NCBI GenBank assembly: GCA_965215265.1 | Contig: OZ244048.1 | Coordinates: forward strand, 2,141,743 to 2,205,742 | Direction of reading: 5' to 3' | Origin: Candidatus Poribacteria bacterium | GTDB taxonomy: Bacteria > Poribacteria > WGA-4E > WGA-3G | Length of the DNA stretch: 64,000 bases | Shown: piece by piece, positions 3,195 to 55,967 of the stretch | How positions within the stretch are numbered: the stretch's first letter is position 1 | Layout: each line of letters begins with the position of its first letter | Notes under the pieces: generated by a model | Database searches by the model: none | Seen by the model: the letters and a program-made list of their open reading frames with translations, nothing else | What the model was told of the DNA's origin: nothing | Made by a program: the position numbers and the translations under genes

Positions 3195-6100
3195 ATGAAT
3201 GAGTTAAGACAATCAATTAATGTTTTACTTGTCGTGACCTGTATCTTGAGTAGTTTTGTACTCTACGGTTGTGGGGCGCAAAGCCTAGGTCCGCAAGAAC
3301 CGCTCTTACCAACTATTGAGGGTAGCTCTAAGTTCTCTGCCCGGTTCCAATTAGAAGAAGAACCGCAGTTCTTCTACGATCTATTTGGAAAAGAGCTGCT
3401 TGAAGGAAACGAAGTCTATAACTATCGCGAGCAAAAAGAATTCGACCAGAACGGTGAATTGATTGTAGGTTGGACTGGACAGCTCGATAGTGAAAGATTT
3501 TCCGCACAGCTCGACCGGACGGTATTAACAGAAGATAGTTTCCGAGGGAGATACACGGAATTTGCTATTGGTGATGATATGCGGTTCAAGCCTGCTACGT
3601 TGTTCCCAAACCGGTACATTCTCTATAAAACAGAGTTTGACGGCTTCCGTTGGGACATCTCTTTTTCGCAGGAGCGACATCTATTTACGTTGATTAACTC
3701 CCGTATCTCTAACCCAGCAAGATTAACTGATGCCGCAGCGAACCTCGCACCAACACTCGGCCGACGGAACGGGTTAAACGCGGATGCCGGCACTCGGCAT
3801 ATTGAAAACGCACGCTTGATCGGTTTCAGGGCACAGGGACTCTTAGGCGATATCTTCCGTGTTGGGTTCACCTATGTCAACCTACACAAAGAACACCCCG
3901 AACGCGTTGAGAACCCTCTCATGGGTACCGTCGCCAATACCCCACCTGAAGTCATCTCTGTTGTTTTTCGTGATGATTCTCCAGAAGATAATCACAACGT
4001 CGTTACCCAATTCTCTGGCTACGATGCTAACCTCCATGGAGATAACATCCAGGGCGGTGTCGGTGCTGCCTTCAAATCCATGAAAGCTACCGTCATAACA
4101 CAAGCATTAGAAGAACTCACAGCCGAAGAAATTGAAGAAGGTGTCGAACCGGCAACTCAGCCCGAACAGACGCAAACAATCGATATTTTTGTTGACGACA
4201 TCACGCCTATTGATGTCGGCGGACTTCCATCCGAAATTCGAGACTCCGTTGATGGTGAATGGAAAATCGTAGACGGTTTCAATAAAATGAAATATGATCT
4301 GGTCTTTGCTGACCACGATATTGAACCGCGCACCGTCAAATCCGTGGTCTTTGAGATGATAGTTGCAGGCGATTACAACATCGCTATCATCGGATTCAGT
4401 GACGCAAACAAAGCCGCTGAAGGCGCTGACCCCCTTGTCGAAGAGTGGATTAAAACCGAAGATGGACATATTGAAATGCCATACAGGGATGTCATTCAAG
4501 CACCCGGCAACTACGGACAATCTTCGGATTATGCCAGCAATCGGACAAGTCTTCTCGATAATCCAAGCGACTGGGAAGGAGAAGGAAGACCCCGGAAAGT
4601 CCAATATCGTTACGGCGCAGCACGCGCAGCACTTCTCTACGGACTTGATCTCGAAGGAACCATCGGGAATGTCTTCGTCCGAGCACATTATTCCATTAAC
4701 GGGAAATATAAGCAGTATCCTACTTTGCCCAAAGACAAAGTCGGTTTTAGTCGGCTCAAAACCACAATTATCACGGACAATGGTGAAGAAGAAACCGGCA
4801 TATCCATAGATCCGGCCACAGGACTGCCTCTAGACCGGAACGGCATACCGACCTACTCAGAAACCGAAGGCGAACGGTTTGAAGCAAGGTTGGGCGGAGA
4901 CGGAAGCGATGAAACCGGCGATGGCGAACTCGGAAGAGAAACTGCCTGGTTCGTACAGCTTAAATCACGATTCGGTAAACTCTACCTTGAAGGTGTTTGG
5001 TACCATATTGACCCAGGATATACCACCACCTATCTCAACTTCGGTTCAAACACCGATAGAGACCAGACATATTCACTGGAACGGACACCTGAATCACAAT
5101 CAGAAGAAGACCCCTGGGATGAAACCAATTACGCTCTCATTGAAGATGACGATGATGATGACGACTGGCCCGATGACATCGACTTTGATGGAGTACTACC
5201 ACGAGCCGATGACAGAGACCAGAACGGGATTTTGGACTTCCAAGAAGACTTCCTAATCTTTGATGCAGATCCGCCGGTCTTTACCGACCTGGTTGACTTG
5301 AACAACAACGGTACTATTGATTCCCTCGAAGATGACTTTGAACCACAATATGAATACGGAATTGACCGCGCCGGCTACCATGTCTTCGCCGAGTACGATC
5401 TACTCGACAACCTTTCTCTCAAAGTGGGGTGGCTCAACGAAGACGAAGTCTCCAGCCGACGACAGAATGATTCCAAATATTTGCACGTCACTTACCAACG
5501 TGACATTCCAGATTTTGGAACGATCCTCTTCCAAAACCGATTCGTCCGGGTTAACGACGATATTCCAGATTACACAATCACTCTCCGGGTCGGTGAATTG
5601 GACCCCGTTCAAATCTCTGACGAACTTGACTTCTACAACGCGCGGGTCAATACCACAACTCTTCAGTTCCTCTATACCGCTATACCCAACTTAACCCTTG
5701 AAGCAAAGTTTCTCGTGGTTTTGCAACATCAGTACGAACAAGATGAGGAAGGCGCTATCTTCCTCGATGTTGAGGGATCCGGTGATGAAAATGATCCGCT
5801 TAACGCAGATCAACGCGTTGACTTCATGGTACCTATCGAACAGGTTCGAGCCTCCGGCGAGAAACGGGAATATCCATTCTATCCTGACCACGGAATTAAC
5901 GCCCTTGATCCGGAAGATCCCGGACTTATCTATGACTCCGAAAACTGGAAGAAACGACGCTATCCAGAACGGGATATTCGCAACCAGCAGACTATTCTCA
6001 AAGCAAGATACGAAATCCCGCTCGGAGATCTACCCTTTGTTGATAAAATCGGTGAGGACTTAACCCTCACCCCCATGGTTAAATATATTTGGGATCGTGC

Positions 6101-6521
6101 CTTTGACCGCGGGGCCGAAGAAATCCCGGAATCGCTTAACCCGCGTTTGTTCGTCCCTACGGATGAAGAACCTGTTGGATACCTCCGATTCAATCGCCGA
6201 AGCCGGGAGGATGTCCTCGGTGTCCGCCTAGATTACCAGTTCACACAAAGAATGAACATCCTCGGCGGATTCCAGTACCGGAAATTTACCAACCGAGACG
6301 ATAACTTCAAAAACTATTTGGGGAACTTCCCGGAAGATGAAGACGTACCGATCCTCTTCCGCCCGGACCTGCGGACCCGAATCTTTGAAATCCAAGCCAT
6401 CAACCGCGGCGAATGGCTCGGTTTTAACATTGTTATCCTCGCAGGTTACAGACGAACCACCATCCTCCTTGAACATACAACCAGTAACACTACGTTTGTT
6501 CGAGCGATGATGGGTTTCTAA
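3195..6521 (+). CDS. giant (1108 aa) secreted, highly acidic outer-membrane-type beta-barrel protein with EF-hand/dockerin-like Ca-binding loops; family unknown
   Basis: RBS AAGGAGG 3176-3182 precedes ATG 3195. Signal/lipoprotein-like N-terminus (LLVVTCILSSFVLYGCGAQS). D7 run and DxNxNGxID / DxDxNGxxD loops (DLNNNGTID, DRDQNGILD). Alternating beta-strand pattern and a terminal aromatic (…AMMGF-stop) are typical of OMP barrels. No TonB box or plug motifs were seen. Confidence 0.55.
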   Translation: MNELRQSINVLLVVTCILSSFVLYGCGAQSLGPQEPLLPTIEGSSKFSARFQLEEEPQFFYDLFGKELLEGNEVYNYREQKEFDQNGELIVGWTGQLDSERFSAQLDRTVLTEDSFRGRYTEFAIGDDMRFKPATLFPNRYILYKTEFDGFRWDISFSQERHLFTLINSRISNPARLTDAAANLAPTLGRRNGLNADAGTRHIENARLIGFRAQGLLGDIFRVGFTYVNLHKEHPERVENPLMGTVANTPPEVISVVFRDDSPEDNHNVVTQFSGYDANLHGDNIQGGVGAAFKSMKATVITQALEELTAEEIEEGVEPATQPEQTQTIDIFVDDITPIDVGGLPSEIRDSVDGEWKIVDGFNKMKYDLVFADHDIEPRTVKSVVFEMIVAGDYNIAIIGFSDANKAAEGADPLVEEWIKTEDGHIEMPYRDVIQAPGNYGQSSDYASNRTSLLDNPSDWEGEGRPRKVQYRYGAARAALLYGLDLEGTIGNVFVRAHYSINGKYKQYPTLPKDKVGFSRLKTTIITDNGEEETGISIDPATGLPLDRNGIPTYSETEGERFEARLGGDGSDETGDGELGRETAWFVQLKSRFGKLYLEGVWYHIDPGYTTTYLNFGSNTDRDQTYSLERTPESQSEEDPWDETNYALIEDDDDDDDWPDDIDFDGVLPRADDRDQNGILDFQEDFLIFDADPPVFTDLVDLNNNGTIDSLEDDFEPQYEYGIDRAGYHVFAEYDLLDNLSLKVGWLNEDEVSSRRQNDSKYLHVTYQRDIPDFGTILFQNRFVRVNDDIPDYTITLRVGELDPVQISDELDFYNARVNTTTLQFLYTAIPNLTLEAKFLVVLQHQYEQDEEGAIFLDVEGSGDENDPLNADQRVDFMVPIEQVRASGEKREYPFYPDHGINALDPEDPGLIYDSENWKKRRYPERDIRNQQTILKARYEIPLGDLPFVDKIGEDLTLTPMVKYIWDRAFDRGAEEIPESLNPRLFVPTDEEPVGYLRFNRRSREDVLGVRLDYQFTQRMNILGGFQYRKFTNRDDNFKNYLGNFPEDEDVPILFRPDLRTRIFEIQAINRGEWLGFNIVILAGYRRTTILLEHTTSNTTFVRAMMGF

Positions 6522-6530
6522 ACTGTTTGT

Positions 6531-6567
6531 GGTTTGCTAGACACGATTTCTTCGTGTCTAGCAAACC
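6531..6567 (+). terminator. strong stem-loop (15-bp perfect stem) 10 nt after the stop of the 3195-6521 gene
   Basis: ggtttgctagacacg-atttctt-cgtgtctagcaaacc. There is no clear U-tract, so it is a terminator or processing hairpin. Confidence 0.5.
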
Positions 6568-6668
6568 AGATTCTAAACAAAACGCGTAACTTTCTTATAC
6601 TAGTGGTGTTCATATAGGTAAAGTTTGCTAACTAAACCTATCTCACGCTCAAAATGGAAATATAACAG

Positions 6669-7382
6669 ATGGTCCGGGCTTGTTTAGTTTTTTTCATTCT
6701 ATTAACCGTCTCTTTGGGGATGTGGAACCTTATCGCACAAACCCAAGAAACACATGTTGAAAACGTTGAAAACGGAGTTGTGCGGGGTTACATTTCCGAT
6801 ATAACACGGCAACAATCACCGATTGCCAACGTTCACGTGACACTCACACGGCTTGAACCAGACTTCGAGACGACAACCAACGCGAAGGGCGAATTTGAGC
6901 TCACCAATTTAGCACCCGGACGCTACGTTGTTACTCTGAGTAAAGATGACTACGACCGGGGGATTGTACAACTTGTAACCGTTGTGAATAGGGGAGAGCA
7001 GTATGTCACACTTAAAATGGGCCCAGAGGCGATAGAAAACGTCCCAATTCCGGAAAAGATTCGCACGCCGGTACCAAAAAATGGCGGCACCGTCCGTGGG
7101 CAAATTGTGGATACATCAACCGCCCAAAACCCTATTCCTGACGTGCGTGTCGTCATTGCCAGCCAAGATGGCGAATATGAAGCGACAACAGATGCAAATG
7201 GCGAGTTTGAACGCACTGGTGTCCCCGCAGGACGCTACTTGATTAGTATCTATAGAGAAGGATACGGAGATCGCGAAGGCAAACCCGTAACCGTCGTGAA
7301 TGGCGGCGAGCACTATATTCCACTCAAGATGACTCAAAAATTCTCTTTTTTCCAAAAATTGGGAAAGGTCTTCGGTTTTTAA
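6669..7382 (+). CDS. secreted protein with two tandem carboxypeptidase-regulatory-like (CarboxypepD_reg, transthyretin-like) domains
   Basis: Signal peptide. Two ~80-aa repeats with the pattern G.VRG.I.D....PI..V.V.........T.T.A.GEFE...PG.Y......GY. The second repeat is nucleotide-identical (98%) to the N-terminus of the next gene. Confidence 0.55.
   Translation: MVRACLVFFILLTVSLGMWNLIAQTQETHVENVENGVVRGYISDITRQQSPIANVHVTLTRLEPDFETTTNAKGEFELTNLAPGRYVVTLSKDDYDRGIVQLVTVVNRGEQYVTLKMGPEAIENVPIPEKIRTPVPKNGGTVRGQIVDTSTAQNPIPDVRVVIASQDGEYEATTDANGEFERTGVPAGRYLISIYREGYGDREGKPVTVVNGGEHYIPLKMTQKFSFFQKLGKVFGF
7082..7333 (+). repeat. 252-bp segment 98.4% identical to 7693-7944 (copy 1, inside CDS 6669-7382)
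   Basis: Direct reading comparison gives 4 mismatches over 252 nt at an offset of 611 bp. Confidence 0.9.
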
Positions 7383-7603
7383 CTTTAAATTACAGATAGT
7401 TGGACCTGTCTTGATAGGAGGGGCCACTACAATCTATTCTCCTACAATGGCGTGGGAGAACCTGAATAATCAACCCTGAAAAAAAGCGTAACTTCTTAGT
7501 GTCTCAGGTGTTGATAGATACAAAACTTGTTAGGAATACGAGGGCATACTTGTCCGATTCGAGAACTTTACTAACAAGTTACCTAAAGGAGGAAACAGTC
7601 CGA

Positions 7604-8599
7604 ATGAAACGTTTAAGTTTAATGTTAATGTTAGCTGCCTGTATCGGAATGTCCGCTGGAATCGTCTTTGCACAAGATGACATTGCCAGCAGTGGCGGCA
7701 CCGTCCGTGGGCAAATTGTGGATACATCAACCGCCCAAAACCCTATTCCTGACGTGCGTGTCGTCATTGCCAGCCAAGATGGCGAATACGAAGCGACAAC
7801 AGATGCAAATGGCGAGTTTGAACGCACTGGTGTCCCCGCAGGACGCTACTTGATTAGTATCTATAGAGAAGGATACGGAGATCGCGAAGGCAAACCTGTA
7901 ACCGTCGTGAATGGCGGTGACCACTATATTCCACTCAAGATGACCAAGAAAGACAATATCGTCTCCTTCTTCATGAAGTTCGGTTTCGTCTTCTGGCCCT
8001 TGGCTCTTTGTTCCGTCACAGCACTCACCTTCATTATTGAACGGCTCTTCACGTTCGTCCGAAGCCGTTCACGTATCGGCACCGAACAGTTCATCGCAAA
8101 CATCGCGGATTCTTTGCGGAAAGAGAATATCATGGAAGCCGTTTCAATCTGTGAAGAAGCAGGCGGACCCCTCGCCAACGTGCTTAAAGCAGGGCTCCTG
8201 CGTTACAGCCAAGCCCAGATTGAAGAACGCGACATTACCAAAGAGGAAATTCAGGAAGCGATTGAAGAAGCAAGCCTCCTTGAAATACCCGAATTGGAAA
8301 GAAATCTCCCTGTATTGGGAACAGTTGCAGTGGTTTCGCCCCTATTCGGTCTGCTCGGAACAGTCACTGGTATGATTAGTGCATTTACAACTATTGCACT
8401 TGAAGGTACGGGAGACCCGCAGCAGCTCGCCGGTGGTATCTCACAGGCTCTCCTCACGACTGCTGCAGGCCTAACAGTCGCTATTCCATGCCTGATCTTC
8501 TTCCAACTCTTTGATAGCTGGGTTAACAGGCACATGGTTGAGATTTCTCAGGTCTCCACTGAAATTGTTAACCAATTGGTTGTTGGTGAAGGGTCGTAA
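7604..8599 (+). CDS. exbB: MotA/TolQ/ExbB-family proton channel with an N-terminal signal peptide plus CarboxypepD_reg-like periplasmic domain (unusual fusion)
   Basis: RBS AAAGGAGG 7586-7593. The C-terminal 230 aa are a classic ExbB/TolQ (…LGTVAVVSPLFGLLGTVTGMISAF…AGGISQALLTTAAGLTVAIPCLIFF…). The N-terminal 110 aa are signal plus the GTVRGQIVD…GEFE…PAGRY…GY domain. Confidence 0.8.
   Translation: MKRLSLMLMLAACIGMSAGIVFAQDDIASSGGTVRGQIVDTSTAQNPIPDVRVVIASQDGEYEATTDANGEFERTGVPAGRYLISIYREGYGDREGKPVTVVNGGDHYIPLKMTKKDNIVSFFMKFGFVFWPLALCSVTALTFIIERLFTFVRSRSRIGTEQFIANIADSLRKENIMEAVSICEEAGGPLANVLKAGLLRYSQAQIEERDITKEEIQEAIEEASLLEIPELERNLPVLGTVAVVSPLFGLLGTVTGMISAFTTIALEGTGDPQQLAGGISQALLTTAAGLTVAIPCLIFFQLFDSWVNRHMVEISQVSTEIVNQLVVGEGS
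7693..7944 (+). repeat. 252-bp segment 98.4% identical to 7082-7333 (copy 2, inside the exbB-fusion CDS)
   Basis: See copy 1. Confidence 0.9.
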
Positions 8600-8666: not shown

Positions 8667-9116
8667 ATGCAACAACTCGCTGAAGGCAAATTGAACATGC
8701 TTGCAAATAAAATTAAGGAACGCAAGGCACCAACCCTCAGCATGGCACCGATGATTGATTGTGTCTTTCTACTCCTAATTTTCTTCATGGTTTCAACAAC
8801 CTTCTCACCCATTCCAGGGCTCCGGGTACAGCTCCCACCGCCAGGGAAACCGTCTCCGGATAAACCGAAAGGGCTCACCGTCAGAATCGCTAACCCGGAA
8901 CCAGGTGAGAGCAGAGGCACCATGGTCCTGAATGACGAGGTCGTTCAACTTGAGGAAATGTTTACGCAATTCATCAACGCCCCAGAAGAAGCAACGAGCA
9001 TGTTGATTATCCAATCTGAACGCGACGTACTTCATGAACAAATTGTACAAGTTATGGATATTGCTAAACAAGCAGGTATTGATAAAATCGGTTTTGCTAT
9101 TGTCGCCCGAGACTGA
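8667..9116 (+). CDS. exbD: biopolymer transport protein ExbD/TolR
   Basis: RBS GGAG. The hallmark N-terminus is MAPMIDCVFLLLIFFMVSTTF with a single TM. Confidence 0.8.
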   Translation: MQQLAEGKLNMLANKIKERKAPTLSMAPMIDCVFLLLIFFMVSTTFSPIPGLRVQLPPPGKPSPDKPKGLTVRIANPEPGESRGTMVLNDEVVQLEEMFTQFINAPEEATSMLIIQSERDVLHEQIVQVMDIAKQAGIDKIGFAIVARD

Positions 9117-9163: not shown

Positions 9164-9586
9164 ATGGCTTTGAACATTTCCCGAAACCGGAATAAGGACG
9201 AAGATGAAGATATTCCGATGGCACCCATGATTGATTGTGTGTTCTTGCTATTAATTTTCTTCATGGTCTCTGCTATTATGCGGGTTCCCCCACCTTTCAC
9301 GGTGACGCTCCCGGATTCCTCTACGCAACATGAATTCACGCGAAAGAAGTACAATCTTTTCATCAGCAGCGACGGCCGCGTCTCAATTGACGATCAGGAA
9401 ATGCTCACCCTGGAGGACATGGAGATGTTCCTATCTGCCCATGAAAACCAGATCAGCACCTTGATTATCAAGGCAGATAAACGTGCAAAACACGGCGTTG
9501 TCATTGACGTGGTTGAACGCGCGAAAATGCGCTCCAGTAAAACGGAGGGACTTGAAGTCGCTTTCGCAGTGTCTGAAGAAGATTGA
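9164..9586 (+). CDS. exbD: second ExbD/TolR paralog
   Basis: RBS AAGGAG. It has the same …IPMAPMIDCVFLLLIFFMVSA… motif. Confidence 0.8.
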   Translation: MALNISRNRNKDEDEDIPMAPMIDCVFLLLIFFMVSAIMRVPPPFTVTLPDSSTQHEFTRKKYNLFISSDGRVSIDDQEMLTLEDMEMFLSAHENQISTLIIKADKRAKHGVVIDVVERAKMRSSKTEGLEVAFAVSEED

Positions 9587-36441: not shown

Positions 36442-36570
36442 GTGGTGGCGGGAAAAGGGAATCCCAGTAGGTGGCGAGTAAAAGGTAGTAGTGCGTCACC
36501 TTCAGATGACGCAACACTACCTATCTCGCCACTTTGCTATCCTTCAGAATAAAAAAGAAAACCGGACCCC
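36442..36570 (+). repeat. intergenic repeat family A, copy A1 (REP/MITE-like, modular, internally palindromic)
   Basis: Shares modules ggtggcggg, cccagtaggtggcgagtaaaaggta and acctatctcgccactttgctatccttcagaataaaaaagaaaaccggacccc with A2, and inverted modules with A4. Confidence 0.8.
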
Positions 36571-36613: not shown

Positions 36614-37318
36614 TCACTCATCACCTCCACCTAACAGCCCTAACCGGAAGAGATAATAGACTAACGTGAGCAGACTTGTCACTGCCGCAGCGAGATAAGT
36701 TAAGAACGCAGCATTCAGAACCTTACTTGCGTGACGATTTTCTTCTGGCGTGAGCATGCCCGCTTCATCCATCGCAACTTTAGCGCGCCGACTCGCATCC
36801 CATTCAACCGGAAGCGTTATCAGTGAAAATACCACCCCTACTGTGAACAGTGCCACACCCAACAATAGAAACGGTTGAATAAAAAGTCCAACCATAATCA
36901 GGATATAGGAAAACATTGAACTGAAATTAGTCGCTGGCACAAGCGCGGTACGCAGACTGAGCATGGAGTAACCGTGTGCATCCTGCATGGCGTGCCCAGC
37001 TTCATGACAGGCCACTCCTATTGCTGATAGAGACTGGCTTGAATACACATCATCCGATAGACGAAGGGCTTTCTGTGACGGATCATAGTGGTCGCTTAGC
37101 CAGCCACTTGAACGTTCAATTCTCACACCGCTGATCCCGTGTCTATGCAACATCTGTGCTGCTGCTTGCGCACCCGTCATACCGCTCCGAGAACCGACTT
37201 GTGAATATTTTGAGAATGTTGACCTTGTGCGCCATGTTGCATAGAGAGACAGGGCAAACCCGGGAGCAATAATGATAAAATAGAGCGGATCAAAGAAAAA
37301 CATGATATACACCTCCAA
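36614..37318 (-). CDS. membrane-embedded putative neutral zinc metallopeptidase (HExxH)
   Basis: HEAGHAMQDAHGY zinc motif with N- and C-terminal TM helices. ~230 aa. Confidence 0.55.
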   Translation of the reverse strand: MEVYIMFFFDPLYFIIIAPGFALSLYATWRTRSTFSKYSQVGSRSGMTGAQAAAQMLHRHGISGVRIERSSGWLSDHYDPSQKALRLSDDVYSSQSLSAIGVACHEAGHAMQDAHGYSMLSLRTALVPATNFSSMFSYILIMVGLFIQPFLLLGVALFTVGVVFSLITLPVEWDASRRAKVAMDEAGMLTPEENRHASKVLNAAFLTYLAAAVTSLLTLVYYLFRLGLLGGGDE

Positions 37319-37330
37319 TTTTAGATTCCT

Positions 37331-37456
37331 GTGGTGGCAGGGAAAGGTATCCTAGTGGGTGACGAGTAAAAGGTTATCTTCTCTCATGGACAGAGAAAGA
37401 ATACCTATCTCGCCACTTTGCTATCCTTCAGGATAGAAAAAGAAAACCGGACCCCG
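37331..37456 (+). repeat. repeat family A, copy A2, a direct repeat of A1 on the other side of the metallopeptidase gene
   Basis: The last ~60 nt are near-identical to A1. Same orientation. Confidence 0.8.
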
Positions 37457-44901: not shown

Positions 44902-45007
44902 CAAGCTTGTAGAAGCGCAATTCATTCTCTGCCTCTCCACGCTTGCATCTTTAAACCATCGGAGCACTGTGAAAAGCACAGAGTCTTTCTCATAGCTCTC
45001 CATTTCT

Positions 45008-45097
45008 GATTACCACAGCAGCCTAAATCGGCTCTGACGAGATTTGTATAGGTATTATGAAAGCAGCAGCCTTTTATAATGCTTCAGGAGACAAAAA
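45008..45097 (+). repeat. repeat family B, copy B1 (core …ggctc[tc]gacgagatttgta…gcagcagcctt…)
   Basis: ~97% identical to B2 over 90 nt. Lies just 3' of mfd. Confidence 0.8.
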
Positions 45098-45217
45098 TAT
45101 GTAGCCGCGAGCTGATGCTCGCGATTCTTAATCGGAGATTCGCAGGAAAAGGTATTGACCTAAAGGTTAATTAATACCTTACCTGCGAACTTGAACCACA
45201 AAAAAGGAACTATGAAT

Positions 45218-47307: not shown

Positions 47308-47325
47308 CCAATTTTGATTACCACA

Positions 47326-47406
47326 GCAGCCTAAATCGGCTCTGACGAGATTTGTATAGGTATTATGAAAGCAGCAGCCTTTTATAGTACTTCAGGAGAC
47401 AAAAAG
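47326..47406 (+). repeat. repeat family B, copy B2
   Basis: Near-identical to B1. Followed by a 15-bp perfect hairpin. Confidence 0.8.
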
Positions 47407-47408
47407 TT

Positions 47409-47451
47409 GTAAAGTGTCTAAAGTTACTACACAAGACTTTAGACACTTTAC
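47409..47451 (+). terminator. 15-bp perfect-stem hairpin after surA-like gene 2 (gtaaagtgtctaaag-N13-ctttagacactttac)
   Basis: Perfect inverted repeat with no U-tract. Confidence 0.4.
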
Positions 47452-47496
47452 AGCCCTTTAAACTTGAAGGAACCACGTTATGCTATGCCTAATGCG

Positions 47497-47565
47497 TCTC
47501 CGACGAGATTTACACTGTCATTAACAAAGCATAAAGCGTGATGGTACGGAGATATACAAAACACC
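47497..47565 (+). repeat. repeat family B-related element F1 (ctccgacgagattta…gatggtacggagatatac), abutting the surA start
   Basis: Shares both modules with F2 at 54847-54935. Confidence 0.7.
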
Positions 47566-48938: not shown

Positions 48939-51900
48939 TTGAACTTTCAAGACGCGCCGGCAAGCGGCGAACGAAAACCTAAATTTTGGGACACTTGCGC
49001 AGCTGCCATAATCGCACTACTCGCAATCCCGTACCTCCACTCTCCGGCAGCACCCGCGCATCCCGCTCTTAACGCACGGCTCATCGCTCAAACACCCCCG
49101 CCGGAACAGACAGAGACACCCACTGAGCCCCAAGAAGAAACAGACGAAAAAGAAAATGCCCCTACATTCAATCCAGAGCAGGAGACACCTGACTCCGGGT
49201 TTGTCATCGGCGACGGAGACGAGATGGTGATGCACGAGAATCTCGTACAAATCCATGGAAACGCTCTCGTCAAATTTGGGGATATCACTTTGCGGGCAGA
49301 CCACGTCTGGGCCGATTTCACCGAAAACGTCAATTTAATCCGCGCATCCGGGAACGTACATCTCATCACCGGCGACGAGGAGACATTCTCTGATGAACTC
49401 GTCTTTAACCTCGAAACCAAAAAGGGCATCGCACGAAACGGCTTTACCTACAGCGACCCCTGGTACTTCGGCGGGAGTGAAATCTTTAAAATTGAAGATA
49501 AGACATCTTACGTCCGAAGTGCTAGCTTGACAACCTGTTCCCTCAAATATCCACACTACTATTTTAGCGTCTCACGCGTTATCATACGAGTCAACGACGA
49601 GCTCATCGCCAAAAATATCATACTCCGCATCGGAGGCTTCCCACTCTTCTATTTTCCAGCCATCCGACGCGATCTGCAGAAGGGAAAAATCGCTAAAATT
49701 ATTGTCAAAGTCGGAACCGATAGCTACCAAGGCCCTTATATCAGTATCATTCAACCTGTCGCACGCAAAAGACGCTACGATGGCGCACTCCTCTACGATA
49801 GAAGTGCACGCAGAGGACACGGCTTCGGGCTTGAAACAAAATATCGATTCAATGATACACAATTCCAAGAAATTTATATCCCTATTCCACCCGACCTAAC
49901 CGCCGCGCAACGCTCAAAATTGGAGGATAAAGCCAAAGAGATACGCGAACGGCTCGAAGGCAAATACAACCGATATTGGCTAAAGCAAATTTTCCTACCT
50001 TATGAAATTACGGATGCTGACTTCAAACGCGCGAAAGAGAACGCTGAAGAACTGCATAATCAACTTGTCCAAGAAAACGCAGATTTCGCACAACTCGCAC
50101 AGCAGCATTCTAGCCACGAAACTCGATACGAAGGGGGCGACTTAGGGTTCATCACATTCGGAGAACTGATTGAGGACACAGAAAAATCAACGCCTGCCTC
50201 TAAAAACACAGATAAAAATACCGAAACACCGCAAACCCAATCCGGATCAGAAGACGCAGCACAAACAGACGACGATACGCCGCAATCCGATGATAAACCA
50301 CCACAAACAGACGACGATGCACCGCAATCCGATGATGAACCACCACAAACAGACGACGATACGCCGCAATCCGATGATGAACCACCACAAACAGACGACG
50401 ATACGCCGCAATCCGGATCAGAAGACGCAGTGCAGCCCATTGGGACACCCAAACTCGACCCGATTTTAGAAACAGCAGCATTTCAACTAGAGGAAGGCCA
50501 AATCAGTCAGGTTTTAAAGACTGAATCCGCTTTTCACATCCTCAAAATCGAACGGGCCCTTGATGTATACGGAGAACGCGAAATACAGGTCCGACGGATT
50601 GATATTAACATTGAACCCAGCGACGAAACACGGCAGAAAATACGCGAAACCGCAAATCAAATTTATCAACGTGCACACGAAGGCGAACCCTTGGAAAAAC
50701 TTGCCGAAGAATTCGACGAAGCCGCTTTATCAGAAATCAACCAAGGCAAAGGACTCCCACTCAATCAAATGGAGTCCGGATGGCAATATTCTGTCAGAAG
50801 GTTAGAGAAGCCCGGCGAAATCATACAACGCCGGCCAGTTTCCGCACCAGAGGGGTTATACATCTTCCAATTAATTAAAAAAGAAGAGACTCCCTCCTTT
50901 GAACAACTCGCTCAAGAATTTGAATTGGAATGGGAAACCTTCCAACAAGAGGTCATGCGTTCAACCGAAGAAGAGAAACAGGAAAACGCAGAAAAAAACC
51001 AAACAGCCGCAGCTGCCGAACCTCTACAAGCTAAAAGTATAGCACCGCAACAAAAGAAAAAAACAGAAGAAAAAAACGGAACACCTACACAACTAGACGA
51101 GCAGCCGGACGCGGAGAGTGAGAACACAACCCAAGAAGAAGATGAAGAAGATGAAGAAGATGAAGCAGCAGCAGCAGAGCAGGGTGTCTATCGAAAACAC
51201 GGATTTCGCGGACAGTGGGAAGATCCCCGCATGGTCGCAGCCGAAGCACGCAGTTTGTACACCGGCGAATTCAGTCGTGTCGTAAAAACAAAAAAAGCGA
51301 TCCGCCTTATTAAGGTCGATCGAAAACGCACTTACCGCGGGGATTTCTACTTCTACGGCAAAGATGCATACTCCTTCGACAGGCAGAACGCAACTCGTAT
51401 CGGCAGAACATGGATATCCCGATGGGGACACACGCAAGCTATCTATACACCCTGGGATAATCGCCAAGAAGGACGCCGCCCTATCAACTTTACCGGACGC
51501 CTCGAATGGCGCGCCCGAAACTACAAAGAAGAACTCCGACTCCCCGGAGAATCCACACTCAAATCGTTTGGACTCCTTAACTACGGCTCCGCATTCACCA
51601 CATGGTCTACTCAAGATGTCGATGAAAACAATAATCTCAAATTCTCAATGGAAACTATCGGAGATTTCGCAGGACGACTCGAAATCCGACATATCTATGA
51701 TTTCACCCAACAAGGCACTACATCTTTACAAAAACTCCCACAACTCTCCTTAAACTTTTCACGGATGCGGTTTAGCCAACTGCCTCTCTTTCGAACCATT
51801 AACTCCGGGTTAGTCTACCTCTCCGAAAAAGCCCAAAGCGACAAACCTTTTCTCTCACTACTCTCTGTACCAACATTAGATAACACCAGCTTCGATCTGG

Positions 51901-53012
51901 ACATGGAATTCGGAAATTTCTTTAGACAAATCTATAAAGGCAAAAACGAGGAAGAGAGAGATGTCTTCCTGCAGACGCTTGACTTCGGTTTTGACCTGCG
52001 CAAACAGGCAACCTTACTCATTACCCCGCTGCGCGAATTGGTAACCAACATCAATCTGAATACAAACTTTATCTGGCACGACCGGGACCAGGACAAAAAC
52101 AGGAACATTATCCGCGGCGTTTATAGTTTCAACGGCTCCGCCACAAATACACTCTTCCGTGTCTACAATATTAGTTTCATCCCACGGGCACGTAAACTAC
52201 GGCACGAGATGCAATCATCACTCCGGTTTGATTACCAACCCCCTGTTGATCGGAACGATAATCTCTATCCCTTCGGCCCCAGCACCTATTTCTACGAACG
52301 GAAAAGGATCGTCTATAACTTCAACACGAACATCGAAATTAAGACACAGCGCAGCCAATCCCCACATCGTATCTTCCATTTTGACACCCGACTCACTGCC
52401 GACTTTACCAAATTCGACCCGCTAAACAGACGCAAATATGAACCGATCGAGAGTGATTTCACTATCATACCGCTCCCCAATCGCAGCCTGAACATGACCG
52501 TCCGACTCACCCACGACCCCAATCCACACCCAGAGGACGGTACCATGTTCAAAGTTGTCGGAATCCGTTCCAACATCCGATACACACGACAGAAGTGGAA
52601 TGTCAGCATCGGAAACTCCTTTAGCAAACGGCACACCGCCATTCGAGCATCACGCTCCATCACCGCCAATGGCAGATACCGATTTAACGAGAACCTCGAT
52701 TTCGATTTCAACCTCATCTTTTATCCGATCGACAGGGACTTCTACTCACAACGCATTAGTATCAATCGGAACTTACACGATTGGAACTTGCGCGTCTCTT
52801 GGAGCCGCATCGGCATTAAACGCGGGCCGCCACCCCATAACAACGTCCGACAAGATTTCACTTTTCAGATTAGCTTAATTCCAGAACCAGCAGTCTCAAT
52901 GGGCATCGGCTACGATGCCACTACCGAAACATGGGGACTCCGTACCTTACCCGCCGGCGCACCTTACAACGCTTTCGGGGTAGGAAATGCACTCGGACGT
53001 TCTTACTTCTAA
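48939..53012 (+). CDS. LptD/OstA-like outer-membrane protein (1357 aa) carrying an embedded parvulin (PpiC) domain split by acidic PQ[ST]DD tandem repeats
   Basis: RBS AGGAGGGGG plus TTG. N-terminal LptA/OstA-type beta-jellyroll (…FGDITLRADHVWADFTENVNLIRASGNVHLITGDEE…). PpiC signature …ADFAQLAQQHS….GGDLGFITFGEL – [repeat insert] – AAFQLEEGQISQVLKTESAFHILKI. Long C-terminal beta-rich region ending …GRSYF-stop. Confidence 0.55.
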   Translation: MNFQDAPASGERKPKFWDTCAAAIIALLAIPYLHSPAAPAHPALNARLIAQTPPPEQTETPTEPQEETDEKENAPTFNPEQETPDSGFVIGDGDEMVMHENLVQIHGNALVKFGDITLRADHVWADFTENVNLIRASGNVHLITGDEETFSDELVFNLETKKGIARNGFTYSDPWYFGGSEIFKIEDKTSYVRSASLTTCSLKYPHYYFSVSRVIIRVNDELIAKNIILRIGGFPLFYFPAIRRDLQKGKIAKIIVKVGTDSYQGPYISIIQPVARKRRYDGALLYDRSARRGHGFGLETKYRFNDTQFQEIYIPIPPDLTAAQRSKLEDKAKEIRERLEGKYNRYWLKQIFLPYEITDADFKRAKENAEELHNQLVQENADFAQLAQQHSSHETRYEGGDLGFITFGELIEDTEKSTPASKNTDKNTETPQTQSGSEDAAQTDDDTPQSDDKPPQTDDDAPQSDDEPPQTDDDTPQSDDEPPQTDDDTPQSGSEDAVQPIGTPKLDPILETAAFQLEEGQISQVLKTESAFHILKIERALDVYGEREIQVRRIDINIEPSDETRQKIRETANQIYQRAHEGEPLEKLAEEFDEAALSEINQGKGLPLNQMESGWQYSVRRLEKPGEIIQRRPVSAPEGLYIFQLIKKEETPSFEQLAQEFELEWETFQQEVMRSTEEEKQENAEKNQTAAAAEPLQAKSIAPQQKKKTEEKNGTPTQLDEQPDAESENTTQEEDEEDEEDEAAAAEQGVYRKHGFRGQWEDPRMVAAEARSLYTGEFSRVVKTKKAIRLIKVDRKRTYRGDFYFYGKDAYSFDRQNATRIGRTWISRWGHTQAIYTPWDNRQEGRRPINFTGRLEWRARNYKEELRLPGESTLKSFGLLNYGSAFTTWSTQDVDENNNLKFSMETIGDFAGRLEIRHIYDFTQQGTTSLQKLPQLSLNFSRMRFSQLPLFRTINSGLVYLSEKAQSDKPFLSLLSVPTLDNTSFDLDMEFGNFFRQIYKGKNEEERDVFLQTLDFGFDLRKQATLLITPLRELVTNINLNTNFIWHDRDQDKNRNIIRGVYSFNGSATNTLFRVYNISFIPRARKLRHEMQSSLRFDYQPPVDRNDNLYPFGPSTYFYERKRIVYNFNTNIEIKTQRSQSPHRIFHFDTRLTADFTKFDPLNRRKYEPIESDFTIIPLPNRSLNMTVRLTHDPNPHPEDGTMFKVVGIRSNIRYTRQKWNVSIGNSFSKRHTAIRASRSITANGRYRFNENLDFDFNLIFYPIDRDFYSQRISINRNLHDWNLRVSWSRIGIKRGPPPHNNVRQDFTFQISLIPEPAVSMGIGYDATTETWGLRTLPAGAPYNAFGVGNALGRSYF
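50268..50417 (+). repeat. in-frame 42-bp tandem repeat x ~3.5 (DDD[AT]PQSDD[EK]PPQT) inside the LptD-like CDS
   Basis: Units at 50268, 50310, 50352 and a partial one at 50394. It is flanked by a longer direct repeat (…caatccggatcagaagacgcag…). A 9-bp x3 EED repeat lies at ~51131. Confidence 0.85.
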
Positions 53013-53096
53013 CATTATTAAATTGAAGACTCATAACCTAGAATGGCTCCCACTGGGAGCCTACTTAGGCATAGTCTTTTGAAGTCAAAGCATCAG

Positions 53097-53161
53097 AAGG
53101 CTCCGACGAGATTTGTAAAGGGTTTAACATTGCAGCAGCCTTGTATCGGGCTCCTGTAGAC
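53097..53161 (+). repeat. repeat family B, copy B3 (variant), 3' of the LptD-like gene
   Basis: gaaggctccgacgagatttgtaaagggtttaacattgcagcagccttgtatcgggctcctgtagac. Preceded by the small hairpin ggctccc-act-gggagcc at 53045-53061. Confidence 0.7.
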
Positions 53162-53820
53162 GAAAAGGCGATTTCAAGCAACTGAGCGCGGTTTTATATG
53201 AATGGAGAATCTACTACAGCACTGGATACCGGGTTTATTTCGGCGTTTTCCGCACCACAGCTATTCTGCTTTGTGGCGGAACTAAACGCACACAACAGCA
53301 AGACATTGCCAGAACACAAAACTATTGGAACGACTTCTTAGTACACAGGAAGGAACAAGGACAACAAATACCGAAACGAGGCTTCAGAGGCGCACATTGC
53401 CTTTCAATCCCCCTTTTCTTAAAGAACTTGCTGAACTGGGGTTTGCCAAAGTTTATCTGGAAGCTGCATGAGCCGATTTTGACAAGGATAGGAACATTGA
53501 AAGACTATTGCACGCCATAAAAGAGGTAGCAGAAGCACAAAGCGGAATTGGCATCCTTGTTGCATGGACACAACTCAGTTATCAGAATCTTGCTTATCTT
53601 CTTCGTGTCAAACATCCATTGCAATTGGATAAAACGTTAGATTCAAAAACAGAAACCGCTCATCAACCTAACCGTAGCGTGGACAGAGACGCTAATATCA
53701 TTGTCATCGACTTCGTGAACGGAAAAACGGAGAAAATCGGAACAGATTGAAACACTGAAACCGAAGCTGTTTTTTTATGAAACGAAGACACACCGACTGA
53801 CTCAGGGGCATTCCGATGCC

Positions 53821-54807: not shown

Positions 54808-54846
54808 ATTTTAGGTTTTGATTTTAAAAGACTATACCTAGTTAAC

Positions 54847-54935
54847 CTCCGACGAGATTTACATCGGATTTAACAATACATAACCCTTGATGGTACCAAG
54901 ATATACAAAAAGATGGTACGGAGATATACGAAAAG
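54847..54935 (+). repeat. element F2 (ctccgacgagatttaca…gatggtaccaagatatacaaaaagatggtacggagatatacg, internally duplicated)
   Basis: Matches F1 modules. Confidence 0.7.
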
Positions 54936-55110
54936 AAGTGTTTGTTCTTTTGACATATTTCTAATACCTAAAAAAGCGTGTCTCCTGTTAAGATTCTTAA
55001 AAGTTTTCCGTTAATAACTCATGTCCTATTAGTATTCTGTGATAACTAGGGAAAGTCGTTCAGGCTGTTTACCCAATTCAGAGCCGTTTATGTTTAGATT
55101 CATAGCATAA

Positions 55111-55176
55111 GAAGGCTCCGGCGAGATTTATACAGGTTTTAGCATAGCAGCAGCCTTGTTGCGGGCTCCTGTAGAC
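55111..55176 (+). repeat. repeat family B, copy B4
   Basis: gaaggctccggcgagatttatacaggttttagcatagcagcagccttgttgcgggctcctgtagac. Confidence 0.7.
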
Positions 55177-55967
55177 AAATGAACCAAATCGATGTGGGCA
55201 GATGCAATGATATCGGCACCCATTCGCCCTGAAACTGCCTGTCGTTGGCAGCATTGATGACTGTGCAATCGGTGAATGTCACTCGCGCCCCCTTCAATGA
55301 CTTTTCCTGAATCTTGATACCGTAACCGACGGTATTCTCAACTGTGCAGTTATTAAATTCAATATGCCCCCTGGTCCATCGTCTCGAATCTTTGAAACGC
55401 GGATACCCGTTCCGTGTTGACTGCTGATGTAGCAATTTTCAAAGTGCATCGTCACAGCCTCGGATTCACCGGTGGTGTGCGCCAAGAACACTTCGATACC
55501 GTCTCCGCTGTTATCGACGTTGACGTTCTTGCAACCGCCTCTTCCAACGTCATCCGCCACTCGCCCTTTGGATACTGTCCATACCAGCGATGCCAGCCAA
55601 ATTGTTCGAGTACGAGCCCTGTGATATAGTCCTGTTTCCACATCCTGAAAGTCGCGCCGTAGCCACGGATGGTGAGATTCTCCACATTTTGTGCTGTTAA
55701 CATGGAGTCCCCTTTTCCCCGATATTCCCCGCGTTTTGCGGTAACGACTGTGCCGGGTTCAAAAAGCAATTCTTGATTCCCGGCAAGCCGAATTGGCTGA
55801 ATTATCCAATCGGTGTGCATATTCGGCACAAACACGCGTTTCGCGCCGGAGTCAATTGCTGCCTGCAGCGTCGTTGTCGCATCTTCAGGATCAAAACCCC
55901 ACCACGCAGCATTGGCAAAAGTCTTTTCTCCAGAACGAATCTCTTCAATCGCTTCAAGATTTTTCAT
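55139..55967 (-). pseudogene. frameshifted right-handed beta-helix (pectate-lyase-fold) protein gene
   Basis: Three successive minus-strand ORFs in three different frames (55967-55452, 55641-55294, 55435-55139) together read as one beta-helix protein (…AAWWGFDPEDATTTLQAAIDSGAKRVFVP…, …NCYISSQHGTGIRV…, …NCTVENTVGYGIKIQ…FTDCTVINAA…). The last ORF runs into repeat B4. Confidence 0.55.

Follow-up and report, generated by a model that had tools for sequence, protein, structure and literature searches.

The window, a 64-kb stretch of a Poribacteria genome, carries an exbB–exbD operon preceded by a small gene that shares a near-identical segment with exbB; all features described here lie on the + strand and are numbered within the window. 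The gene at 3195..6521, a neighbour that Poribacteria conserve upstream of exbB, encodes a large lipoprotein-like or outer-membrane-like protein (1108 residues from ATG 3195, as called in a sister strain), collinear with orthologous loci at 78–82% nucleotide identity and without a Pfam or NCBIfam match. A strong hairpin (6524..6579; 17-bp inner stem 6530–6546/6552–6568) lies directly 3′ of its stop codon. The hairpin folds at a minimum free energy of -32.2 kcal/mol (z = -8.3 against shuffles) in a stretch that aligns with related loci, and is probably a terminator or RNA-stabilizing element that separates the 1108-residue gene from downstream sequence. A leader motif, AAAACGCGTAACTT(T)CTTA...GGTGTT, follows at 6579..6610 and forms the 5′ edge of an ancient duplication unit. 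Scanning 6400–7700 for promoter and terminator consensus sequences gave nothing above shuffled expectation, and there are no Rfam families anywhere in the window.

The exbB/tolQ-like proton-channel gene (7604..8599) encodes 331 residues, arranged as a signal peptide (7604–7675), a periplasmic CarboxypepD_reg β-sandwich (about 7700–7924) and a MotA_ExbB core (Pfam stretch 8168–8545). ATG 7604 is the likely start, having an AAGGAGG ribosome-binding site at 7586–7592, yielding the signal peptide and matching the 331-residue gene call of the sister strain; GTG 7499 is not a likely start. In an AlphaFold2 model the β-sandwich spans residues 32–113 and is followed by ExbB-like helices. Foldseek matches the model to TolQ/ExbB at TM 0.65–0.75, and the sandwich to a carboxypeptidase D domain and to CnaB-type domains. 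Score and fold agree in assigning the product to PF01618 (111 bits, cut-off 22.9; three-TM ExbB-like fold) and its N-terminal domain to PF13620 (54.2 bits, gathering cut-off 32.3; transthyretin-like β-sandwich). The NCBIfam equivalogs both fall short (TolQ, 105 bits, cut-off 221; ExbB, 74.7 bits, cut-off 206), so the system is not assignable to Ton or Tol. No TonB or TolA gene is found among the open reading frames examined between 490 and 9586. With neither an equivalog-level score nor a TonB/TolA partner in the operon, the protein is not placed with ExbB proper or TolQ proper, and we therefore term it ExbB/TolQ-like. Two exbD/tolR-like genes complete the operon, at 8667..9116 (Pfam ExbD, 2.9e-23) and 9164..9586 (5.3e-24).

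Between the hairpin and exbB lies a gene for a 237-residue protein (6669..7382) with a signal peptide (6669–6740) and two CarboxypepD_reg domains (PF13620, 98.6 bits over two stretches; gathering cut-off 32.3). The first domain, D1 (about 6768–7019), is old and diverged, with only ~36% protein and 56% DNA identity to the ExbB domain and dS saturated at 1.3–1.7, in line with the strong protein divergence that the first-pass annotation had ascribed to it. A linker (7020–7081) leads to the second domain, D2, which Pfam places within the repeat described below. The protein ends in a truncated relic of ExbB TM1 (7341–7382), its tail FSFFQKLGKVFGF, closed by the stop codon, aligning with ExbB VSFFMKFGFVFWP. 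The spacer to exbB (7383..7603) holds a second copy of the leader motif (about 7481–7512) and the exbB ribosome-binding site, and is common to the window, the sister strain and the nearest species (locus L056) only.

Self-BLAST pairs 7082–7333 with 7693–7944 over 252 nt at 98.4% identity. The duplication across adjacent genes from which this study started is thus borne out; of the four mismatches in the aligned copies, three are synonymous and the fourth exchanges Glu and Asp. A repeat search extends the pair to 259 nt (7082–7340 and 7693–7951) at 97% identity, with a start-to-start spacing of 611. Copy A (7082..7340, core 7082–7333) constitutes the putative conversion tract in D2, and copy B (7693..7951), delineated by repeat search, alignment and self-BLAST, is the ExbB N-terminal domain and probable conversion donor. 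No second repeat as long and as similar exists in the window, where five other direct-repeat families measure 53–104 nt. The counterpart pair in the sister strain has a BLAST E-value of ~1e-122, which excludes chance.

Repeats of a few hundred bases are prone to mis-assembly, and one copy might have been duplicated or misplaced by the assembler. This we consider very improbable. Each copy is in frame within its own gene, their flanks are not alike, and the two differ at four positions. An independent short-read contig of the sister strain, assembled with SPAdes (99 kb; divergence 0.74%), contains these genes and the repeat as well, with strain-specific differences of its own, which argues that the repeat is real. 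That contig runs straight through both copies, against an earlier concern that short reads would collapse them. The 237-residue protein is also on record from a 4.83-Mb contig. Two further loci, L056 and L075 (both chromosome-level records), display the same phenomenon at 80–89% identity, beyond the reach of any assembler.

Which of the two genes is the novelty is resolved by comparison with orthologous loci, the test proposed in the first-pass annotation. CarboxypepD_reg is present within exbB at 80 of 80 orthologous Poribacteria loci, and the PF13620–PF01618 architecture recurs in all of the best 120 protein database matches; more distant clusters (40–46% identity) also combine CarboxypepD_reg with MotA_ExbB. 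P0237, P0242, P0246 and P0251 are distant fusion proteins. The N-terminal CarboxypepD_reg domain of ExbB is, by these comparisons, evidently ancestral, and the fusion itself was already described in 2016 (PMC5087111). A recent capture of the domain onto ExbB, one of two explanations first offered for the repeat, is refuted by its presence in every orthologue and in all of the best 120 matches.

The upstream gene has the opposite distribution. It is missing from 77 of the 80 loci, and among 5.8 billion proteins its product has full-length matches only in the source genome and in one sister-strain variant. In L056 the upstream copy is a pseudogene remnant with an in-frame TAG. Judged by this distribution, the upstream gene is evidently a lineage-specific tandem copy of part of exbB, its 5′ end, and the derived element of the locus, presumably under relaxed constraint or dispensable. 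With the ExbB fusion old and conserved and the upstream gene novel, the earlier reading of the locus is corrected.

The age of the duplication can be bracketed. Upstream copies in the window and L056 end at the same stop codon, carry one and the same 9-nt deletion when compared with exbB and have derived tail residues in common, and the two loci have a collinear spacer and a duplicated leader motif. That motif occurs once, after the gene upstream, in the single-copy loci L001 and L013, and twice in the window and L056. By these common features, the duplication is older than the divergence from the nearest species. When the D1 region is aligned with L056, loss of D1 there and its gain on the window side both fit; the one argument for loss is that D1 divergence far exceeds the species split.

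Against this chronology, the identity of the two copies is strikingly high. Copies are 98.4% identical within the genome and 70–74% identical across genomes. Neighbour-joining trees, built on 252 columns only, group all four copies of the window and the sister strain in 200 of 200 bootstraps and the L056 pair likewise in 200 of 200, with orthology groupings in 0 of 200. Synonymous divergence between the copies is 0.069 in the window and 0.105 in the sister strain, and 0.83–1.05 between orthologues.

Selection on the sequence itself, for an identical protein or an RNA element, might in principle maintain such identity without recombination, given that the domain is functional in ExbB and that the operon is highly expressed in Poribacteria according to PMC5087111, in which the sequence on either side of it has zero transcript coverage. 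We find this hardly credible. Synonymous sites match just as closely as non-synonymous ones (dS 0.07, compared with ~1 between orthologues), for which protein-level selection cannot account. Orthologous ExbB domains evolve fast (70–82% amino acid identity where the core has 96–98%), the homogenized L056 copy is a pseudogene, no Rfam family is found, and the nucleotide sequence is not conserved across species.

The homogenized region is discrete. Within the tract 248 of 252 positions are identical, and in the homologous tail 27 of 49 (Fisher P = 4e-16), so that beyond the 3′ edge an identity of 98% gives way to one of 55%; on the 5′ side, homology itself stops at the tract edge. L056 presents a mosaic of its own, in which a central 95 nt carries three mismatches between flanks of ~65–75% identity, despite the pseudogene state of its upstream copy.

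A single, very recent duplication of the 252-nt ExbB segment into the upstream gene, without recurrent conversion, would also yield copies 98.4% identical, and L075 shows that part of the exbB 5′ end can indeed be duplicated in tandem (562 nt at 85%, including non-coding leader). We nonetheless judge it improbable. The tail beyond the tract is just 55% identical and has the 9-nt deletion in common with L056, meaning that the copy was already present before the species split; this orthologous tail, together with the spacer in L056, largely refutes the idea already. L056 has its own, separately homogenized tract, and at one pair of sites (see below) both copies changed after the strains split. 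Moreover, when one domain replaces another in frame at the homologous position, the process falls under the very definition of gene conversion.

Comparison with the sister strain (99.26% nucleotide identity overall) resolves the tract further. Paralogue differences common to both strains begin at tract position 205. The youngest sub-tract (~7082–7285) has zero fixed differences between the paralogues, and at 7286–7333 three positions distinguish them in the window and the sister strain alike. Position 7142 and its partner 7753 co-vary: both read C in the window and both read G in the sister strain (L085), an Asp/Glu difference. We take this pair to mark a conversion after the strain split, from a single site for which the rough chance expectation of a parallel identical change is ~0.01. 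Four signs by which gene conversion is recognized are present: a duplication older than speciation, homogenized synonymous sites, a discrete tract and, at this single site, ongoing exchange.

We conclude that the repeat has very probably been kept near-identical by recurrent gene conversion between exbB and its upstream partial duplicate, as comparative sequence evidence suggests. Ongoing concerted evolution, the other explanation first put forward, is thereby upheld by the trees, dS, the tract edge and 7142/7753. In the history we propose, an ancestor of the source species and L056 would have tandem-duplicated exbB from the leader through the signal peptide and domain to the start of TM1, yielding a small gene just upstream that in the window carries the older, diverged D1 too. 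Non-reciprocal homologous recombination with the copy in exbB, at a distance of 611 bp, would then have overwritten D2 of this old duplicate again and again, presumably by a RecA-type pathway. At least three conversion events would be required: an older one reaching to about 7333, a younger one covering about 7082–7285 before the two sampled strains split, and at least one further event after that split, through which the 7142/7753 substitution would have come to stand in both copies.

The donor was most likely exbB. We infer this direction, since the only orthologue of D2, that of L056, is itself homogenized. Either direction is possible in principle, and the data do not reveal in which copy the 7142/7753 substitution originated. 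Had upstream D2 instead overwritten the ExbB N-terminal domain, the window ExbB domain might be expected to lie farther from its orthologues, and it does so slightly (78% against a mean of 82%). This value is, however, well inside the normal range of 63–99% for pairs with 96–98% core identity. Where the upstream gene is unconverted, in D1 and the tail, its identity to exbB is ~55%, and with D2 as donor the ExbB domain should accordingly stand out clearly; its ordinary distance to orthologues led us to reject it as an outlier. The nearest tree relatives of the tract are the ExbB domains of other species and, at 7310, the exbB copy retains the Asp of the aligned orthologues (GGDH) where window D2 has Glu. 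Conversion in the reverse direction is, on balance, unlikely, if the least so of the alternatives.

The case illustrates how a decaying partial duplicate can stay partly 'fresh' through its parent gene. The locus is a clean natural case of domain-level gene conversion in an uncultivated sponge-associated symbiont, and offers dated reference points in the species split, the strain split and the nested tracts. Domain trees of the CarboxypepD_reg/ExbB family will mislead unless conversion is considered.

Homogenization might serve a function instead of being incidental, with a secreted, soluble two-domain paralogue kept matched to ExbB. Matching would be favoured if both proteins must bind the same periplasmic partner, in which case the small upstream protein could be a competitor or adaptor that tunes a Ton/Tol-like motor. 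The 252-nt direct repeats share a codon register, raising the possibility of reversible deletion or duplication, through which a population would come to hold ExbB forms bearing either a single N-terminal domain or two; the proteins that match D1 include no fused two-domain ExbB, which such a deletion is predicted to yield. Recurrent copying of part of the exbB 5′ end, which took place independently in L075, could be how the widespread Poribacteria family of small signal peptide–domain–TM proteins is born. Taken jointly, we regard these functional, variant and birth readings as unlikely.

The exbB product resembles ExbB–ExbD and TolQ–TolR stators (PDB 5SV0, 6TYI, 8ODT and 9DDM) across its core (residues ~118–326, E-values of 1e-12 to 1e-14), in its predicted core fold (TM 0.65–0.75) and in the two ExbD/TolR genes downstream. 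Its N-terminal periplasmic β-sandwich and cleavable signal peptide are without counterpart in the matched ExbB/TolQ PDB chains. A closer parallel is the poribacterial 'BTP' (Jahn et al. 2016, Sci Rep 6:35860, PMC5087111), reported as a channel of the MotA/TolQ/ExbB type that bears a carboxypeptidase regulatory-like domain and shares a transcript with ExbD* and ExbD. That system has the same architecture and the same exbB–exbD–exbD order. With its fusion gene and the two exbD genes behind it, the window locus, in a Poribacteria genome, is a BTP–ExbD*–ExbD operon in the sense of that paper, whose operon passages make no mention of an upstream partial paralogue. The corresponding locus of the genome treated there, SAG WGA-3G (L052), is among our orthologous loci (86% amino acid identity) and, unlike the window, lacks that paralogue.

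Stand-alone Poribacteria proteins of 144–150 residues (for example, P0135, P0141 and P0151) combine a signal peptide, CarboxypepD_reg and a C-terminal TM helix, a module equivalent to the ExbB N-terminus through TM1, and are 65–74% identical to the protein encoded by the repeat. They come from unrelated loci, are well conserved, fall in one clade in 81 of 85 cases and possess a full TM anchor, whereas the window upstream gene has two domains and a 13-residue TM1 relic. Considered as conversion partners, they were set aside, with none in the window and a nearly separate clade. The partial exbB tandem duplication in L075 exemplifies a route to a gene of the stand-alone type.

Precedents for concerted evolution are tufA/tufB in Salmonella and E. 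coli and the rRNA operons (PMC5485169, PMC8022953 and PMC6053082). Here, unlike in these, homogenization involves only a single 84-codon domain in a pair of genes that otherwise differ, and the partner, 611 bp off, is a truncated lineage-specific duplicate, probably under relaxed constraint. There being no second functional full-length gene, homogenization has no obvious dosage rationale. The locus reveals no new kind of system. It shares with tuf and rRNA conversion a non-reciprocal homogenization within one genome that leaves paralogues closer than orthologues, and tracts of tens to hundreds of bases that end where homology drops and recur over time, a well-documented, ordinary kind of bacterial genome evolution.

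The repeat measures 259 nt at 97% identity in a repeat search of the window (7082–7340 and 7693–7951, spacing 611), and self-BLAST returns 252 nt at 98.4% with four mismatches (7082–7333 and 7693–7944). Pairwise alignment assigns these mismatches to three synonymous changes and one Glu/Asp exchange, with similarity ending abruptly on either side. The first-pass annotation of a 252-bp segment at this identity in two adjacent genes is thereby confirmed. The 64-kb window holds no second repeat of comparable length and similarity; its five other direct-repeat families span 53–104 nt. Pfam places two CarboxypepD_reg domains in the upstream gene (6669–7382) and CarboxypepD_reg plus MotA_ExbB in the gene that follows, itself followed by two ExbD genes. 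This fusion gene, exbB (7604–8599, 331 aa), most likely starts at the ATG at 7604, because an AAGGAGG site precedes it, a signal peptide results and the 331-aa call in the sister strain agrees. The exbD1 and exbD2 genes have a 53-nt stretch in common (85%), coding for a TM helix (8742–8794 and 9218–9270).

A CarboxypepD_reg domain sits inside exbB at 80 of 80 orthologous Poribacteria loci, gathered by scanning species-representative genomes, many with chromosome-level records. Among 5,630 database relatives of the fusion, the best 120 were inspected for domains; all carry PF13620 and PF01618, and those named are Candidatus Poribacteria. Remoter clusters (40–46% identity) have the same architecture. 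The fusion was already known: passages of Jahn et al. 2016 (PMC5087111) describe it in Poribacteria SAG 3G, with two exbD genes on one highly transcribed message, a locus that is L052 in our set. The domain was therefore not recently captured onto ExbB, contrary to one of the two readings proposed, and comparison across orthologous loci shows it to be ancestral there. An AlphaFold2 model (mean pLDDT 74) comprises a signal helix, a β-sandwich (residues 32–113) and an ExbB/TolQ-like helical core. Foldseek matches the core to TolQ/ExbB structures and the sandwich to carboxypeptidase D and CnaB domains. Since the fusion scores under the cut-offs of both the TolQ and ExbB NCBIfam models, we name the protein ExbB/TolQ-like.

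The derived element is the upstream gene, not the ExbB domain. It arose when exbB was partly duplicated in tandem, from the leader into the coding sequence as far as the start of the first ExbB transmembrane helix. By tblastn it is absent at 77 of the 80 orthologous loci. A search of 5.8 billion proteins with the 237-aa product gave only two full-length matches, its own entry (P0121, encoded on a contig of 4.83 Mb) and a variant, P0220. Next in rank come N-termini of ExbB or unrelated proteins with two domains, at ~40% identity. P0220 is encoded on a 99-kb SPAdes contig of the sister strain, L085, which matches the window at 99.26% across 12.7 kb with gene order unchanged. The nearest species, L056 (~80% nucleotide identity), retains a remnant at the corresponding position, lacking the signal peptide and first domain, with an in-frame TAG and the same tail as in the window (...QKRSFFQRLGNMFGF, then stop). 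The upstream copies in window and L056 both lack 9 nt that exbB has, and they have in common the stop codon, derived tail bases and the spacer down to exbB; the leader motif AAAxGCGTAACTTCTTA...GGTGTT has a second copy in both, and one copy only in single-copy loci. Because of these common features, the duplication is placed before the split of the two species. In a distant Poribacteria species, exbB was independently duplicated in part and in tandem, across its leader and 5′ end (L075, 5311–5852 and 5877–6438; 562 nt, 85%). This event is cleaner than the window's, yielding an intact 167-aa gene (5415–5918) with signal peptide, domain and TM helix.

Without homogenisation, the second upstream domain is expected to be at least as different from the window's ExbB domain as from its L056 orthologue. 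The opposite holds, copies being nearer within a genome (98.4% nucleotide identity, or 96% including flanking codons) than between orthologues (70–74%). Likewise, dS is 0.069 in the window and 0.105 in the sister strain, against 0.83–1.05 between orthologues. In a neighbour-joining analysis (87 sequences, 252 columns, 200 replicates), the four window and sister-strain copies form one clade in 200/200 replicates, as do the two L056 copies, and orthology groupings appear in 0/200. The homologous tail just past the tract is identical at 27 of 49 positions, versus 248 of 252 inside it (Fisher p = 4e-16). The L056 copies are mosaic, with a central 95 nt (three mismatches) flanked by ~65–75% identity, despite the pseudogene status of the upstream copy. 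That homogenisation extends to this pseudogene, and to synonymous sites, excludes selection in the absence of recombination as what keeps the copies alike. An assembly artefact is very improbable: the sister-strain sequence comes from an independent assembly, every copy carries differences of its own in either strain, and L056 and L075 display the same phenomenon at lower identity.

We compared both copies in each of the two strains. The paired site 7142/7753 is C in both window copies and G in both sister-strain copies; therefore a new substitution was copied across after the strains diverged (0.7%). This covariation, together with the old, shared tail and spacer, renders a single recent duplication lacking recurrent conversion improbable. 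Grouping by genome, low dS, the sharp tract edge and this site all support the suggestion of ongoing concerted evolution. Differences at tract positions 97, 166 and 184 (7082 being 1) are young mutations, because each varies in one copy of one strain. Paralogue differences present in both strains start at position 205 (7286) and recur at 226 and 229; past 252 the copies diverge strongly. The four copies call for a minimum of three events, making conversion ongoing and nested: an older one extending to ~7333, a younger one spanning ~7082–7285, and a third postdating the strain split.

The window's ExbB domain, at 78% to its orthologues, is about as near to them as expected (pairs of equal core identity average 82%, range 63–99%). 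Because of this, and because the upstream gene outside the converted tract shows a mere ~55% identity to exbB, exbB is the likely donor; conversion in reverse, from the second upstream domain into exbB, is unlikely. Between window and sister strain, the upstream gene has four non-synonymous and two synonymous differences, versus five and 28 in four neighbouring genes together. These numbers, though small, and the loss of the gene in L056 suggest relaxed constraint.

The ExbB N-terminal module also recurs as common stand-alone Poribacteria proteins of 144–150 aa (P0135, P0141, P0151 and others; L081 8001–8438, L082 2162–2599), with signal peptide, CarboxypepD_reg and one TM helix. They are 65–74% identical to the ExbB N-terminus, highly conserved between genomes and encoded at unrelated loci between amidohydrolase and DUF1326 genes. 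Ten ExbB domains (L033, L034, L037, L040–L042, L044, L045, L048 and L051) nest in their clade in a neighbour-joining tree. By analogy, the small proteins may have arisen through L075-type duplication. A nuo (complex I) cluster encodes, between its 49-kDa and 24-kDa subunits, a TM-anchored 233-aa protein in which CarboxypepD_reg occurs twice (L083 8001–8702, L084 2075–2776). Four further Poribacteria proteins (P0259, 600 aa; P0239; P0290; P0240) are headed by signal peptide and domain module, 55–63% identical to ExbB residues 1–120; one has a transglutaminase-like core, and others have two or three tandem domains.

The gene for an 1108-aa lipoprotein-like protein (3195–6521; lipobox LYGC, Phe at the C-terminus), matched by neither Pfam nor NCBIfam, is conserved just upstream of exbB in those orthologous Poribacteria loci that were aligned. 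Directly after its stop is a very stable hairpin (6524–6579; inner stem of 17 bp, −32 kcal/mol, z = −8.3), alignable with related loci and not picked up by a consensus terminator scan. Repeats 3′ of exbB (70–88%) in L002 (7559–8096/8193–8727), L050 (7591–8092/9255–9736), L032 (7852–8081/8249–8480) and L080 (8715–9478/9549–10318) are probably additional or duplicated exbD genes. Elsewhere in the window, an intergenic family of ~80–105 nt (45000–45103, 47308–47411, 47483–47561, 53069–53172, 54832–54910 and 55084–55187; core CTCCGACGAGATTTrTAnAGG..TTTA.CA..GCAGCAGCCTTGTAT...GACAAAAAG) includes two copies 94% identical and matches no Rfam family; it could act as a shared leader or as an RNA regulator, or else represent a small repetitive element. 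Direct repeats of 58 nt (83%; 36513–36570 and 37397–37454) flank a 234-aa minus-strand ORF (36614–37318) and may mark insertion ends or be duplicated regulatory sequence. A 21-nt coding tandem repeat (7 aa, Asp/Pro/Gln-rich; 50250–50457) lies inside a 1357-aa ORF (48939–53012).

Mechanistically, the conversion is ordinary and resembles that of bacterial tuf genes and rRNA operons (PMC5485169, PMC8022953, PMC6053082). Unlike those cases, it is limited to one 84-codon domain, which a conserved motor gene has in common with a partial duplicate specific to the lineage; this restriction to a single domain is its only unusual aspect.
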